Shown: positions 36,641 to 42,030 of the stretch, piece after piece | How the letters are laid out: every line of letters starts with the position of its first letter | Position numbering within the stretch: position 1 is the stretch's first letter | Source of the DNA: Thermomicrobiales bacterium | Lineage (GTDB): Bacteria > Chloroflexota > Chloroflexia > Thermomicrobiales > UBA6265 | NCBI GenBank assembly: GCA_041390825.1 | Contig: JAWKPF010000009.1 | Span: forward strand, 59,808-123,807 | DNA length: 64,000 nt | Direction: 5' to 3' | Program-made: the position numbers and the translations under genes | The notes under the pieces: generated by a model | The model's database searches: none | Told to the model about the DNA's origin: nothing | The model's input: only the letters and a program-made list of their open reading frames with translations

Positions 36641-37393
36641 CTAAACGCTAAACAGCTCTCCAATAAGCCGCTCATACGCCTGAGATCCTTTGGAACTGGC
36701 GTTGTAGGAGAAGATGTCTTGCTGGTTGAAGTGGGCATCACGCAGATCGACGTTCTTCGGGATGATCGTGTTGAGCACCGAGTCGCCATAGGTCTGGCGC
36801 AGCAATTTCAAAGAGTTCTTGGTATTGATAGTTGGCTCGCTCATGGTGAAGACGAACCCAGCCAACTCCAGTTCCGGATTGAAGTGAATCTTGACCTCTT
36901 CGATGGTCTTGCCCATCTGGACGGTCGAGTCAAGCTCAAAGTAGCCAGGGGAGACCACCACCAACACCTTGTCAGCGGCCGTGAAGGCATTCAGCGTCAA
37001 CCAGGACAGTGCGGGAGGGCAATCGATCACCACGAAGTCGTAGTCGCCTTTGACCGCCTCCAGCGCCGCTTTGAGGCGAGCTTCACGGTGATCAATGGCG
37101 GTCGTCAGTGAGATGTCTGTCTCAGACAACAAAATGTGCGACGGCACGATGTCCAAATTGGGAATCGACGTAGGGGAGATCGCCAAAGGTTTGCGATCGA
37201 TGATCGTCGCGTACAGCGTTCGATCTTTAGAAAATTCTTGGTAGTTGGGTAAAACGACCTTGGAGGAGTTGGCTTGGGAGTCCGTATCGATCAGAAGGGT
37301 CCGCTTGCCACGATGGGCAAGTCCGGCAGCGAGCGATATGGATGTGGTGGTTTTGCCAGTCCCACCTTTTTGAGAGGCAACAGCGAGAATCAT
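36641..37393 (-). CDS. parA: ParA/Soj family partition ATPase
   Basis: ORF 36641..37483 trimmed to the ATG at 37393 (GGAGGAAA upstream). Deviant Walker A MILAVASQKGGTGKTTTS. Confidence 0.88.
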   Translation of the reverse strand: MILAVASQKGGTGKTTTSISLAAGLAHRGKRTLLIDTDSQANSSKVVLPNYQEFSKDRTLYATIIDRKPLAISPTSIPNLDIVPSHILLSETDISLTTAIDHREARLKAALEAVKGDYDFVVIDCPPALSWLTLNAFTAADKVLVVVSPGYFELDSTVQMGKTIEEVKIHFNPELELAGFVFTMSEPTINTKNSLKLLRQTYGDSVLNTIIPKNVDLRDAHFNQQDIFSYNASSKGSQAYERLIGELFSV

Positions 37394-37539
37394 TTTCCTC
37401 CAGGTCAGCCACGGTAGTGCCCGCGAGCGGGGTAGCCACACGTGATTGTGGTGATACGTCCATACTGGACATAATGCAAGCAAGTGTCAAGCTGGAATCA
37501 CAGCTTCCCTGGGAAACCATTAACTGCATGGAGTAGCTA

Positions 37540-39156
37540 TCAGGATCCTTGGGCGACGAGTCGTCGAAGTCCGACCTTAATATCACTCACCAAAACTTCT
37601 CCACCGCTTGGCTCAAAGACCGAGATCCAGCCGAGTGAGGCAAACTCTTTAAGGACTGATTCAACCAGCAGTGTCGGCAGCTCCAGGGCTCGCGCGATCG
37701 TGTCACTGTCAGTCGTTCCTGCAACGACAGACGTGGCGATCTCTTGGCGCTCCTGCTTGAACTCAGGGTGTGTTTGTTGAAAGTAGAGCCGTAAGGCACG
37801 GGGAGTGACGGTGATTGCCGCTGGAACTGAGCCAGCCGCGATGACCCACGCAACTTCAATGTGCCCCTTGCTCTCAAGGACCTCGATCGCATCATCAAGT
37901 TCTTGTCGGCTCAGCCCGTCAGTAAGCAGCATCTGGCAAATCGAATCGCCGTCGAGAAAATCTTGGCCTGCAGCCTCAGCCTGACGACACGCCGCCCACA
38001 ATACTTTGATATCGGTTTCTGTTAATCCAGCTATCGCCGCAGTCGTTTCATGGTTGGTTGGTGTCGGATGATACAGGGAAGCGCCAGCGGTACCGAGATC
38101 TTTTCTCATACTCTGCGCGAGTTTTTCCAAGAGCTCGGCCATCCTTCCAACAGAGCTTTCTTTAACGGAGATCCGTTGGCCGAGCTTGAGTGCTAGATCA
38201 CCGGTTTCGTCGAGGTACTTTTGATCAACTATTCCCTGTTGATGCTCCAAGAGGTGCCGTTGTTGGAATAGCTTCTGCAGTTGTGCCCACTCTTTCGGAT
38301 CCAGGGTCTGAGTGTATGAACGGCCACCAGCTTGCGTCCAAAGCCGGTCGCCCCTCGACAAATTTTGAAATGCATTGCGACTAGGGACAGTTGTGAAGTT
38401 TGGTAGGCGAGGATAGGAGATCTCGGCAAACCGCTGAAAAGCGGTGACGAGATTGCCGATCTGCCCCTCTAACATATCTCGCTGATACTGATCTATGAGA
38501 TTGATATCACCACCACTTGCTGCGATCAAGGCCACCGCCTTACCGACCGACCGCGCCTTCGTTAGGGTCTGGTCAAATGTCTGCCCGGCCGAGTTATGGC
38601 CGCAAGCGGGGCAAAAGAATCCAGAGCCAATCACTGCAAACTGACAACCACAGGATTCGCACTCGATTTGCAGAGTCATAAGATCGGCGGCGATAGGAGG
38701 GACGGGCGCTAACCGGGGGCTTGCCTTGTACTCAGCTGAGACAGACACCATTTCACGGGAACGACGACGGCGATTGATGCTGCGGGCGAAATCCCCGAGC
38801 ATCTTGTCGAGATGGCCCTGCGCTTCCGCCAAGGCAGCGCTTCTTACATATTCCGCGAGTTCATCCGTGTTGAAAGCTTGGGGCTCGGCCTCAACGCGAC
38901 AGAATGGGCAATAGGCAATGGCTTCGGGAACCTTTTCCTTCCAATGCGCGAAGAGAACCTTAAATGGTCGCCCACATTCGTCGTCGGGACACTTACGATC
39001 CCAATATCCTTTGTCATCAAGCTCGATAGGCACCTCTATGCGAAAAATTTCCGACACGGCAGGACCTCCAGAAACACGGATGGCGTTCGATTTAGCGAAC
39101 TTGAAGAGTAGACCATGCGTTCTAAGATACGGCTGAACCTTGTTTCTGTCGACCAC
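37540..39156 (-). CDS. orphan 538-aa protein: two zinc ribbons + HEPN-like R-x4-H region + C-terminal wHTH-like repeats
   Basis: The ORF is intact. Cys pairs CPDDEC..CPFC (residues 56-86) and CESCGC..CPAC (166-185). QQRHLLEHQQG at residues 298-308 (nt 38242-38259 encode RHLLEH). No family recognised. Confidence 0.6.
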   Translation of the reverse strand: MVDRNKVQPYLRTHGLLFKFAKSNAIRVSGGPAVSEIFRIEVPIELDDKGYWDRKCPDDECGRPFKVLFAHWKEKVPEAIAYCPFCRVEAEPQAFNTDELAEYVRSAALAEAQGHLDKMLGDFARSINRRRRSREMVSVSAEYKASPRLAPVPPIAADLMTLQIECESCGCQFAVIGSGFFCPACGHNSAGQTFDQTLTKARSVGKAVALIAASGGDINLIDQYQRDMLEGQIGNLVTAFQRFAEISYPRLPNFTTVPSRNAFQNLSRGDRLWTQAGGRSYTQTLDPKEWAQLQKLFQQRHLLEHQQGIVDQKYLDETGDLALKLGQRISVKESSVGRMAELLEKLAQSMRKDLGTAGASLYHPTPTNHETTAAIAGLTETDIKVLWAACRQAEAAGQDFLDGDSICQMLLTDGLSRQELDDAIEVLESKGHIEVAWVIAAGSVPAAITVTPRALRLYFQQTHPEFKQERQEIATSVVAGTTDSDTIARALELPTLLVESVLKEFASLGWISVFEPSGGEVLVSDIKVGLRRLVAQGS

Positions 39157-39412
39157 CCCAAATGTGAACAGGGGCGTCCATCGGCAGTTCCTCGATCGGC
39201 GAAAGGGTCACTTGCGTTTCAGCGGTATAATGTCTCCGATAACACCCCGGAGAAAAACCCTTGAATGCCTGATGAAATTCCACCTGGACCGTACTCTGTG
39301 ACCCCGCAACAATTCCGAGGCCACAGCAATAAAGCTCACAAGCCATCCTGGCCAAAGCATTTCACAGGAAGCTGAGCGTCGGCGCTGAATTAGAAGTCGA
39401 TGGAGCTCAATA

Positions 39413-40271
39413 ATGGCGACTACGGTGACGGAGTCATTCCGAGGTTGCAAATCCAACTTGGAGATTACTGACCTGCAACAAACTACAGTGGCAAATAGGC
39501 AAAAGAGCGTTCGTGATGCAGTTTCTCGAAAAATGAATGTCATCGATTCATTCGTCACCGGTTCTTATAAGCGGCACACCATGATTAGCCCGCTGAAGGA
39601 CGCAGACATAGACGTTTTCCTAATTCTCAATTCGAGTGAATTTGCGTCTGACGGCTATACAGCGCTCTTGGATAAGGTTCGAGCCGTCTTGCTGGAGACC
39701 TACCCTAGCACGCCCAAGATCAGTCGAAATGGACAGGCAGTCACTATAACGTTCACCGACTTTGTGGTTGATGTAGTGCCTGGTTTCCATCGGAAGGGCG
39801 GGGTTACTTAATCCCGAGTACACCAGAAAAGCGTTGGATACCCACGAACCCAAAAGTTCACGAGACCGCGATCACAGCCGCCAACGAACTGCACAATGGC
39901 GATCTCGTTCCACTTATTAAAATGATTAAGGCGTGGAACCGCGAAATTAGCAGCCCGTTCAGATCGTTCTACCTAGAGCTCATGGTTGAAAAGCTGCTGC
40001 GCGGCGTTACCATCAGCAGCTTTCCAAGCGGATGCAGGTACGTATTTGACAAGGGCCGTGTACAGATCAAATCGAAAATTGCAGATCCCGCGGGTTTCAA
40101 AAACCAGCTGAATCCCTGGGTACGGGCAGCGTAGAAGAGGCGGTACAGCGATTTGAGACCGCATATGGCAGAGCAATAAAGGCTGAGCAGCTGGACAAGA
40201 GCGGAGATTCCGCAGCTGCCGTGGCTGAGTGGCAAAAGATCTTTGGCAGTAGCTTTCCGGCATACGGCTAA
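39413..40271 (+). pseudogene. SMODS-type (CD-NTase-like) nucleotidyltransferase, paralogue 1, two frameshifts as sequenced
   Basis: VTGSYKRHTMISPLKDADIDVFL (G-S..DxD), FVVDVVPGF (third acidic residue), then after the shift at 39804-39805 ..NPKVHETAI..LIKMIKAWNRE..RSFYLELM. After the shift at 40124-40126 the tail ..AVAEWQKIFGSSFPAYG ends at the TAA at 40269-40271. Confidence 0.65.
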
Positions 40272-40277
40272 CTAACT

Positions 40278-41155
40278 ATGACGTCACCCAATTTGAAGCA
40301 ACCCACATTCGACGACATTGCGCGCAACCAGAACCAAGATGCGATCCTCAGGTTTATGCTGGCTTCGCGTCACTACTATGCTAGAGCGCGATGGATTCAG
40401 TACCTCGGGACCTGGGGTGCGATTGCTTTCGCGCTTGCAGCCCCAGTGGTGCTGCTGTTCTATCGGATCGAGGTCCACTGCTTGGCGCACTTGCTGGTCT
40501 TTGGATTTTCGCATCGCGTTTAGGACTTTCTCGCCTCAGAGCGTCGTACCAACGAAAGGGCGCGACCGCCCAAGAACAATTCGATTGCGCAGTTTTTCGT
40601 CTCGACTGGAACAAGACCATTGCGGTGCCTCTTTCCCCTGAAGAGATTCGGCACGCCAGCGGAAATATGAACGGAATCGACGCGATCCGAAACTGGTACG
40701 CCACTCCCGGAAAAGTGGATTGGCCGCGCAGCGTTACTCTCTGCCAAAGGGCGAATGCGGTATGGGCTCGCCGACAGCATCACTTATTTGGTGTGGTGCT
40801 GTATGTTGCCGCGACTACTTGGGCCGTAGTGGGGATTTTAATAGCAGTCTGGCAGGACGCTTCACTCAGTCAATATCTGACGACGATTGCACTGCCGTCT
40901 CTTCCGGCCCTATTAGACGCAACGGATCTTGCTCAGGAACACATCGAGTCATCGTGGGCCCGAGGGAGGATTGAGGTGCGTCTGGATGGTCTGTTGGATG
41001 ATGGAACAGCTACAAATCTCGATATCCGTGAAGTCCAGGACGAACTGTTTGACTTGAGAAAGTCATCGCCCATTGTTCCCGAGTGGTTCTATAAAATAAT
41101 CAAACCCGGCTACGAGGAAGATATGACCTACGCTGCAGAGACAAGGATCAACTAG
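40278..41155 (+). pseudogene. four-TM putative pore-forming effector (S-4TM/SLATT-like), one frameshift as sequenced
   Basis: ORFs 40278..40523 and 40391..41155 join near 40464. There are two TM hairpins (WGAIAFALAAPVVLLF/LLGALAGLWIFASRL and HHLFGVVLYVAATTWAVVGILIAV/LTTIALPSLPALL) and the loop EQFDCAVFRLDWNK. The family name is from memory. Confidence 0.55.
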
Positions 41156-42030
41156 TGACGCTCACGGTCAATGAAGGTTTTGAATCGTTTCTCACGCGGC
41201 TCACACCGACTGCGGCCGAGCGCTCTGCGAGTGCTAAGCATCGTGAATCCGTTAAATCGGCACTTGAAGCGAAATTCACCGTTAGCCGCTTCTTTGAAAC
41301 TGGATCGTTTAGTCACGGCACAGGGGTGCGGAGCTTTAGCGATGTCGATGTTTTTGTCAGTGTCAGTGGCTCCCGGCCAGATTCGTCGTATGCCACTCTG
41401 GAAAAGATTCGCAACGCCCTTGCTGAGCGTTTTCAGGTAACTCTGGTGACGATTGATCGTCCAGCGGTGAAGGTCAAATTCGCTCTCGGCACGGAGACCT
41501 GGGAAGTCATCCCAGCCTACGAAGCAACGCAGGATAGCTACGGGCATCTGATCTATGACATTCCCGGCGCTAGTGTCGGATCTGGTTGGATTCAGGCAGC
41601 CCCCGATGCGCATCTCACGTATGTCAATGCCTGCAATGAATCCCCCTCCCGTGGCACGGGCAAAGCGTTGGCGCGGCTGGTTAAGGCTTGGAAGTATTAC
41701 TGTAATGTCCCGATTTCATCCTTTTATCTCGAAATGCGCGCTGCTCAACACGTGTCTTCCGTCGAGACCTACATTCACGTCTGGGACATTTGCTTGCTAT
41801 TGGAAAAGTTGAACACCCATCAACTGGCCAGCATGAACGATCCAGCGGCAGCCTCCGGTCGAATAAATGCGTGCTCTAGTGATGCGAAGCGGGAAGAAGC
41901 ATTGTCCAAGCTCGCTACGGCTGCCGTTCGATCAAGAAACGCGCTAGACGCGCATAAGGCGGATAAGGCCGACTTGGCTTTTTACTACTTAGGTCAATTG
42001 TTCGCAGGACAGTTTCCTAGCCGCGCTTGA
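41155..42030 (+). CDS. SMODS-type (CD-NTase-like) nucleotidyltransferase, paralogue 2
   Basis: Intact 291-aa ORF whose GTG overlaps the preceding stop by 1 nt. ETGSFSHGTGVRSFSDVDVFVSV, WEVIPAY, APDAHLTY, LVKAWKYY..SSFYLEM. Alignable by eye to paralogue 1. Confidence 0.7.
   Translation: MTLTVNEGFESFLTRLTPTAAERSASAKHRESVKSALEAKFTVSRFFETGSFSHGTGVRSFSDVDVFVSVSGSRPDSSYATLEKIRNALAERFQVTLVTIDRPAVKVKFALGTETWEVIPAYEATQDSYGHLIYDIPGASVGSGWIQAAPDAHLTYVNACNESPSRGTGKALARLVKAWKYYCNVPISSFYLEMRAAQHVSSVETYIHVWDICLLLEKLNTHQLASMNDPAAASGRINACSSDAKREEALSKLATAAVRSRNALDAHKADKADLAFYYLGQLFAGQFPSRA

Follow-up and report, generated by a model that had tools for sequence, protein, structure and literature searches.

What is the role of a minus-strand gene that faces a cyclic-oligonucleotide-based antiphage signaling system (CBASS) operon in a Thermomicrobiales genome (GenBank assembly GCA_041390825.1, contig JAWKPF010000009.1, positions 59,808 to 123,807 of the forward strand; this whole stretch of 64,000 nucleotides (nt) is hereafter the window)? 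An initial annotation, made from the sequence alone, described the product as an orphan protein of 538 amino acids (aa) with two zinc ribbons and an R-x4-H motif, and saw in it either a stand-alone HEPN ribonuclease (RNase) effector or a partner of the adjacent operon. We find that the zinc ribbons are followed by a helical domain with the predicted anatomy of HEPN proteins, and that relatives of the protein occur in many different defense contexts. We consider it moderately probable that the product is a self-contained, normally silent HEPN RNase that serves as an anti-phage effector of the abortive-infection type. The coordinates of the gene, its domains, and its surroundings are collected in Table 1; residue numbering throughout follows the 538-aa open reading frame (ORF).

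Because a fold search with the whole protein was swamped by its winged-helix tail, we modeled the helical domain (residues 190-357) alone, using AlphaFold with 42 sequences. The resulting model is a four-helix bundle with a predicted local distance difference test score (pLDDT) of 96 and a predicted template modeling score (pTM) of 0.90, bearing out the earlier expectation of a HEPN-type bundle around R300 and H305. Its helices span residues 190-213 (H1), 218-250 (H2), 287-305 (H3), and 333-357 (H4), with an insert (251-286) between H2 and H3, and a short helix with a beta element between H3 and H4. The R-x4-H motif, read correctly at the outset within the stretch QQRHLLEHQQG, lies at the C-terminal end of H3 in both the full-length and the domain models. 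R300, H301, and H305 are invariant in alignments of 27 and of 42 sequences; cysteines aside, the other columns invariant in both include E230, R242, and E245, all carried by H2, and N261, Q264, W273, and D311.

This arrangement can be compared with the published definition of HEPN domains, which describes a four-helix bundle, frequently with an insert between helices 2 and 3, in which helix 3 ends in an R-x4-6-H motif whose arginine is directly followed by N, D, or H as a polar residue, and helix 2 contributes a conserved acid, typically as E-x3-[KR] (PMC3710099). The modeled domain has the bundle, the H2-H3 insert, the motif position, a polar residue (H301) after the arginine, and acids in H2, these last not in the E-x3-[KR] form. 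In a search of PDB folds, HEPN proteins were the only natural fold to recur near the top of the list (6m6u, 5yep, 6m6w, 7ae6, 8xdj, 7bxo, and 2hsb, mostly HepT-type toxins), with probabilities of up to 0.96 and template modeling (TM) scores of 0.5-0.59 normalized to the target; a fold search of viral structures returned uncharacterized proteins alone. Structurally nearest are the toxins of MntA-HepT systems (5yep, 6m6u, 7ae6, 8xdj), which share the bundle, the H2-H3 insert, the motif position, the polar residue next to its arginine, and an acid in H2. They differ in that the window domain is longer (168 aa versus about 130), is preceded by two zinc ribbons, and has no adjacent minimal nucleotidyltransferase (MNT) antitoxin.

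The protein is not the orphan that it was first taken for: a word-index search found 322 relatives, and a profile search of a library clustered at 50% returned 2,436 representatives at E<=1e-3, 430 of them at E<=1e-30. Nearly all of these representatives are ~335 aa long and correspond to residues ~36-357, that is, to the two zinc ribbons and the helical domain. When a single genome of each species was scanned, 198 copies came to light, spread over Planctomycetota, Alpha-, Beta-, and Gammaproteobacteria, Chloroflexota, Acidobacteriota, Nitrospirota, Actinomycetota, and other phyla. Members are carried by 15 plasmids, nine of them conjugative, and by seven contigs in IMG/VR; a phage collection of 50,697 records contained none. 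Judged by these sequence searches, the window protein belongs to a large, taxonomically broad zinc-ribbon HEPN-like family. Two apparent giant fusions, at loci L014 (1,482 aa) and L029 (637 aa), were rejected as artefacts of naive ORF calling in DNA of 67-71% G+C (GC); the N-terminal parts of both calls are arginine-rich nonsense with no PDB match.

The surroundings of family genes speak to what the protein may do. At 90 loci (the window, nine exact look-ups, and 80 from the genome scan), we clustered every ORF lying up to 6 kb from the family gene, and counted loci, some of which are near-duplicate islands. HsdS is a neighbor at 14 loci, abutting the gene on the same strand at -4 to +3 bp in six of them, which also have HsdM or HsdR; HsdR or a type ISP enzyme occurs at 13, often with a 4-bp overlap, HsdM at 11, an ImmA/IrrE metallopeptidase at 12, a CBASS cyclase at 11, and a NucC-type nuclease at seven. 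At least one of these six recurrent defense neighbors is present at 35 loci, and a restriction-type neighbor at 21. Family tallies of the 113 immediately flanking same-strand ORFs agree with these neighbors, and add integrases, Abi_C, AAA_15/AAA_21, RES, and Schlafen-like (SLFN) proteins. Neither the 90 loci nor the 113 flanking ORFs revealed a constant partner gene. Individual loci illustrate the variety: at one, a type ISP enzyme and a helicase flank the gene, and a cyclase-NucC pair comes next; the island around another holds genes of the AbiJ-like, ThiF, and group II intron types. The initial annotation had proposed association of homologs with defense islands or SMODS genes as a test of its suggestion, and such islands were indeed found, with a cyclase within reach at the 11 loci just counted. 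A stand-alone effector, predicted to be an RNase, fits best among the roles first suggested. We conclude that the family behaves as a self-contained, mobile, single-gene defense cassette, lodging within or next to other defense operons (type I and type ISP restriction, CBASS) and on plasmids.

Some further features of these loci are recorded here in their own right. The ImmA/IrrE gene (Peptidase_M78) stands just upstream on the same strand in about half of its 12 loci (for example L078, 7059-7931; L061, 6721-7842; L044, 732-1847), and it may act as a damage-responsive switch on the family gene, in the manner of CapH/CapP. At L005 (4547-7937) the long-form relative P0133, whose tail is of a different type, lies directly downstream of a SIR2_2 and DUF87 (HerA-like) pair and a Dam-type methylase. 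A 61-aa fragment of DarT, a DNA ADP-ribosyltransferase toxin, is found at L001 (835-1020), a Chloroflexota contig, upstream of a cluster comprising a two-transmembrane (2TM) effector, a cyclase, and a long form of the family protein, and is a further sign of a defense or toxin island. The only copy of an AbiJ-type HEPN gene in the fetched loci is degraded.

Several observations weigh against a HEPN RNase dedicated to defense. H2 lacks the motif in its classical E-x3-[KR] form: its invariant acids, E230 and E245, are not followed by K or R at +4, and R242 stands before E245 instead. Foldseek E-values of the HEPN matches are weak (0.4-3), and designed helical bundles score alike. No Pfam HEPN family matches any of the 42 members at E<=10, and PDB sequences searched with the protein and with the family profile yielded no relative. 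To these must be added the missing MNT-type antitoxin beside the gene, the 55 of 90 loci that have none of the six recurrent defense neighbor clusters within 6 kb, and one locus set among housekeeping genes. Because the fold E-values are weak and neither Pfam HEPN families nor PDB sequences match, we hold the HEPN assignment, which is well supported by the modeled anatomy and the motif, to be short of proven. The weak fold statistics, and a domain that no sequence model recognizes, would also suit a helical domain that is catalytically dead or not of the HEPN type, in a protein that only binds, for example as a zinc-ribbon adaptor or decoy that signals the state of neighboring restriction enzymes or aids them; the tight translational coupling to restriction subunits could then mean physical partnership. 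We judge this very improbable, as partners are too varied for a specific adaptor, and as an arginine and two histidines are invariant at HEPN catalytic positions, along with the helix-2 acids, across very diverse phyla. We favor catalysis because this combination is hard to explain otherwise.

Beyond the observed domain anatomy, residue invariance, fold and motif placement, and gene contexts, we infer RNase chemistry, dimerization, a trigger, and a defense phenotype along the following lines. The pair of N-terminal zinc ribbons would be followed by a metal-independent RNase domain of the predicted HEPN type. If characterized HEPN enzymes are a guide, the protein would dimerize, and the R-x4-H motifs of both copies would together build a composite site, which would cut tRNA, rRNA, or mRNA and leave 2',3'-cyclic phosphate ends. 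The enzyme would be kept silent until infection; the zinc ribbons would probably bind RNA or keep the enzyme off, and the tandem winged-helix tail, restricted to a small sub-clade, may be an add-on module for sensing, targeting, or oligomerization.

The neighborhood of the window gene itself raises the possibility of a different role. The protein could function within the adjacent CBASS, whether as an additional effector, as a sensor licensing the cyclases, or as a winged-helix regulator of the divergent operon. CBASS is its physical neighbor in the window, head-to-head with an intact cyclase-4TM-cyclase operon (4TM, four-transmembrane), and at 10 other loci, where the two are sometimes translationally coupled. 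The gene for P0003, which is the nearest full-length relative (44% identity), comes 13-34 bp after a co-oriented 2TM-effector/cyclase pair; at L034 the first 4 bp of a cyclase-NucC operon overlap a short form, and at L046 the longest-ORF calls abut or overlap, the true start of the cyclase being uncertain. The cyclases within 6 kb at these 11 loci match at least four PADLOC cyclase models, accompanied by 4TM, 2TM, or NucC wherever an effector was identified. Adjacency to a cyclase is nearly as frequent as adjacency to type I restriction-modification (R-M) genes, and CBASS is much rarer in genomes than type I R-M.

Other observations speak against this role. About 88% of the 90 loci have no cyclase nearby, and the gene is coupled just as tightly to hsdS and type ISP genes. 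Counted as independent arrangements, the loci next to CBASS number about six (L003, L023, L034, and L046 are related islands, as are L059, L070, and L072). The gene is not a regular operon member with the CD-NTase (cGAS/DncV-like nucleotidyltransferase). Two other long-form loci that are informative, L005 and L007, show no SMODS gene. The window protein is not a cyclase, and it does not belong to the known CBASS effectors or Cap accessories; searches of Pfam, NCBIfam, PADLOC, and structural folds found in it no cyclic-nucleotide sensor (SAVED, STING, and the like) and no Cap-type domain, and the intergenic region shared with the CBASS operon contains no operator-like repeat. We rejected the gene and CBASS as one obligate system, which misfits the family-wide context, and a working part in the adjacent CBASS is in our view unlikely.

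Four of the cyclase-bearing loci share a recurrent one-strand island layout (L034, 7950-10446; L046, 7938-10440; L003, 1085-11869; L023, 3034-13818). Their order is a type ISP enzyme (at three of the four), the zinc-ribbon HEPN gene, a cyclase recognized by PADLOC as PDLC00803, and a NucC-type nuclease (DUF6602), with several 4-bp overlaps between genes; L003 and L023 alone have, after the HEPN gene, a DUF559-bearing SF1 helicase.

The coupling to restriction genes invites comparison with PrrC, a HEPN anticodon nuclease embedded in hsd operons. PrrC and RloC share with our family a HEPN-type motif and a co-oriented, tightly packed position in type I operons, although the hsd embedding holds for the family and not for the window copy. 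They carry an ABC-ATPase head, whereas the window protein has zinc ribbons and no ATPase domain. On this model the family would be a general back-up ("guard") effector, tied physically or by transcription to the DNA-directed defense system in which it happens to be embedded (type I or type ISP restriction, CBASS) and firing, as PrrC does, when a phage blocks that system; in the sub-clade of the window protein, the swappable winged-helix tail would be a sensor, shared with a TIR effector, that couples the RNase to the neighboring CBASS operon. We think this proposal clearly unlikely. The nearest tested analog of the self-contained effector that we prefer is HEC-08, which, like the window family, is a single gene that joins a HEPN-type domain to zinc-binding modules (zinc fingers in HEC-08) and occurs embedded among other defense genes; it is experimentally protective, and the histidine of its R-x4-6-H motif is essential. 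Its domain order is opposite to that of the window family, in which the zinc modules come first.

A further explanation stems from the element in which the window copy lies. GC is lowered over 31-46 kb around the gene; rep, parA, and a tyrosine integrase belong to this stretch, and copper-resistance genes flank it. The product of the gene could maintain such a plasmid or island, either as a HEPN-type addiction toxin or as a nucleic-acid-binding regulator of partition and replication genes. Its position directly upstream of the parA and rep region, on the same strand of a plasmid-like island, agrees with this, as do the plasmids that carry family members, the integrases and resolvases frequent among neighbors, and the winged-helix pair in the tail. 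Against it stand the lack of a conserved antitoxin-like partner, the predominantly chromosomal location of members, within restriction and other defense operons rather than beside par or rep, and the absence of the winged-helix tail from over 90% of the family. We regard a maintenance function as quite improbable. The gene may nevertheless be co-transcribed with the partition genes of the element, because parA, which has the same orientation, begins 56-146 bp beyond the end of the gene (window 37393-37540); the ParA P-loop motif comes after a methionine ~30 codons into the longest ORF.

Turning to the remaining parts of the protein, both Cys4 clusters described at the outset are present and conserved among 27 homologs, most of the cysteine ligands being invariant and the rest at least 90% conserved; the linker between the ribbons (residues 131-148) is poorly modeled by AlphaFold. 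The sole library model to recognize the window protein is PADLOC PDC-M14A, which aligns with residues 38-188 at E=3.7e-14, using positions 4-150 of the 152 in its profile, and also matches 41 of 41 full-length relatives. No PADLOC model besides PDC-M14A matches P0001 at E<=1, and Pfam, NCBIfam, and PHROGs gave sub-threshold zinc-ribbon noise alone for the window protein. PDC models are phage defense candidates derived from genes embedded in BREX (bacteriophage exclusion), DISARM (defense island system associated with restriction-modification), and type I restriction loci, and PDC-M14 is a candidate two-gene cassette, FAM_02625>>FAM_00494. The PDC-M14A profile covers the whole double-ribbon module, the first third of the window protein, onto which the HEPN-like domain is fused here; PDC-M14 and the window family share an embedding-based origin in restriction and BREX loci. 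PDC-M14B was absent from the 10 neighbors in the window, and component B from the 25 commonest families of the 113 flanking ORFs; a literature search for "PDC-M14" had no match.

The C-terminal tail, joined to the HEPN-like domain by a disordered linker (residues 358-374), folds in the AlphaFold model as the two winged-helix units first suspected there, with pLDDT of 81-93 over most of residues 380-510 and 66-69 over the last ~30 residues; its Foldseek matches are ScpB, ESCRT-II, and MarR. Such long forms (~500-560 aa) are few, about nine among the best 150 of the 2,436 representatives. The tail of the window protein is common to P0003, P0158, P0168, P0177, and P0172, while P0133, P0139, and P0153 have a related or different tail. 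A quick tree built from the core groups five of the six carriers of this tail with two short forms in one small clade (Shimodaira-Hasegawa-like approximate likelihood ratio test, SH-aLRT, 88), and C-terminal extensions were gained more than once, because the remaining long forms are scattered.

The same module occurs outside the family. A 330-aa protein that begins with a TIR domain (L090, 5527-6519) ends in a homolog of the tail, aligned over all 174 residues of the latter at 28% identity (E=1e-13); it is encoded on the Rhodoferax antarcticus plasmid NZ_CP019242.1, near an ImmA/IrrE peptidase, a helix-turn-helix (HTH) regulator, and a tyrosine integrase; the homologous part is the C-terminal 170 aa of the TIR protein. 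The tail looks like a swappable module because this plasmid-borne protein shares it, and its presence on two unrelated effector types points to a role in sensing, targeting, or assembly rather than in catalysis. The TIR fusion resembles the effector swapping typical of defense proteins. A word-index search with the tail alone and a plasmid search with the tail of the TIR protein each returned a self-match alone, and a search of metagenome contigs for more long forms produced one short contig.

The gene is real and intact. As first annotated, the maximal minus-strand ORF (37540-39156) is uninterrupted, and it is not an assembly artefact, because independent short-read contigs from wastewater and marine metagenomes (X1, X2, and X6) cover it without insertion or deletion. 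The sole base difference within the gene, C>G at 38040, occurs in two other metagenome runs. The length given initially, 538 aa, needs revision: the likely start is the GTG at 39057-39055 (V34), for a product of 505 aa, because a GGAGG precedes this codon, the database gene call is 505 aa long (P0002), the N-termini of relatives in the 27-sequence alignment coincide with it, and residues 1-35 have pLDDT below 50. The first 33 codons of the ORF are thus probably untranslated, and the gap to the SMODS operon, originally put at 256 nt, grows to the 355 nt given in Table 1. Two 151-nt contigs of a wastewater metatranscriptome are 100% identical to the gene (38155-38438), and none in the same dataset falls on parA or the CBASS genes; this is a weak hint that the gene is transcribed, and the contigs may stem from DNA carry-over. 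Near-identical copies of window 37300-40300 are present in metagenome assemblies from 14 studies, of wastewater, activated sludge, digesters, bioreactors, sea water, and an invertebrate gut, which means that the host, or else the element, has a wide distribution.

In the neighboring operon, the first cyclase gene appears split in the assembly (39413-39811 and 39922-40134). The independent contigs X1, X2, and X6 have single additional bases at three places, A after 39330, G after 39799, and C after 40113, and because of the last two we take the frameshifts in cyclase 1 to be assembly errors and the operon to be intact. The perfect TATAAT noticed in the intergenic region is present on the plus strand, and a promoter scan found no -35 element to match it. 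No convincing operator-like palindrome or repeat was found in this region, and searches around the gene gave no convincing promoter, no terminator, and no Rfam match.

Table 1. Positions in the window of the gene, the parts of its product, and the adjoining region
Feature	Coordinates	Strand	Basis or remark
Zinc-ribbon/HEPN-like/tandem winged helix-turn-helix (wHTH) gene	37540..39057	-	Start choice, ORF and translation
N-terminal double zinc-ribbon module, aa 38-188	38593..39045	-	PADLOC PDC-M14A, Cys conservation
Ribbon 1, C56/C61/C83/C86	38899-38991	-	Cys4 cluster
Ribbon 2, C166/C169/C182/C185	38602-38661	-	Cys4 cluster
HEPN-like four-helix domain, aa 190-357	38086..38589	-	AlphaFold, PDB folds, invariant columns
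R-x4-H motif, R300-H301-L-L-E-H305	38242..38259	-	Invariant; predicted catalytic site
Tandem winged-helix module, aa 375-538	37543..38034	-	AlphaFold, Foldseek, shared tails
Shine-Dalgarno GGAGG	39065..39069	-	7-nt spacer to GTG at 39057
Divergent intergenic region	39058..39412	.	355 nt, contains TATAAT
TATAAT	39226-39231	+	Read from sequence
CBASS operon: cyclase, 4TM effector, cyclase	39413..42030	+	Pfam SMODS, S_4TM; PADLOC Cyclase, 4TM Effector

HEPN RNases are among the commonest suicide and defense effectors, as in Cas13, Csm6, PrrC, HepT, and several Abi proteins. The family described here would add to the HEPN-type effectors a widespread, uncharacterized architecture that is captured in part by one candidate PADLOC model and by no Pfam HEPN model. 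Should the protein prove inactive, one would have to explain why the motif is so strictly conserved; should it prove to be a programmable or trigger-specific RNase, it may find use as a tool. Through the winged-helix tail, which a TIR protein has too, the swapping of sensor modules between effectors can be approached cleanly. Because its members are translationally coupled to very different defense systems, the family is a good test case for back-up immunity embedded within other immune systems.

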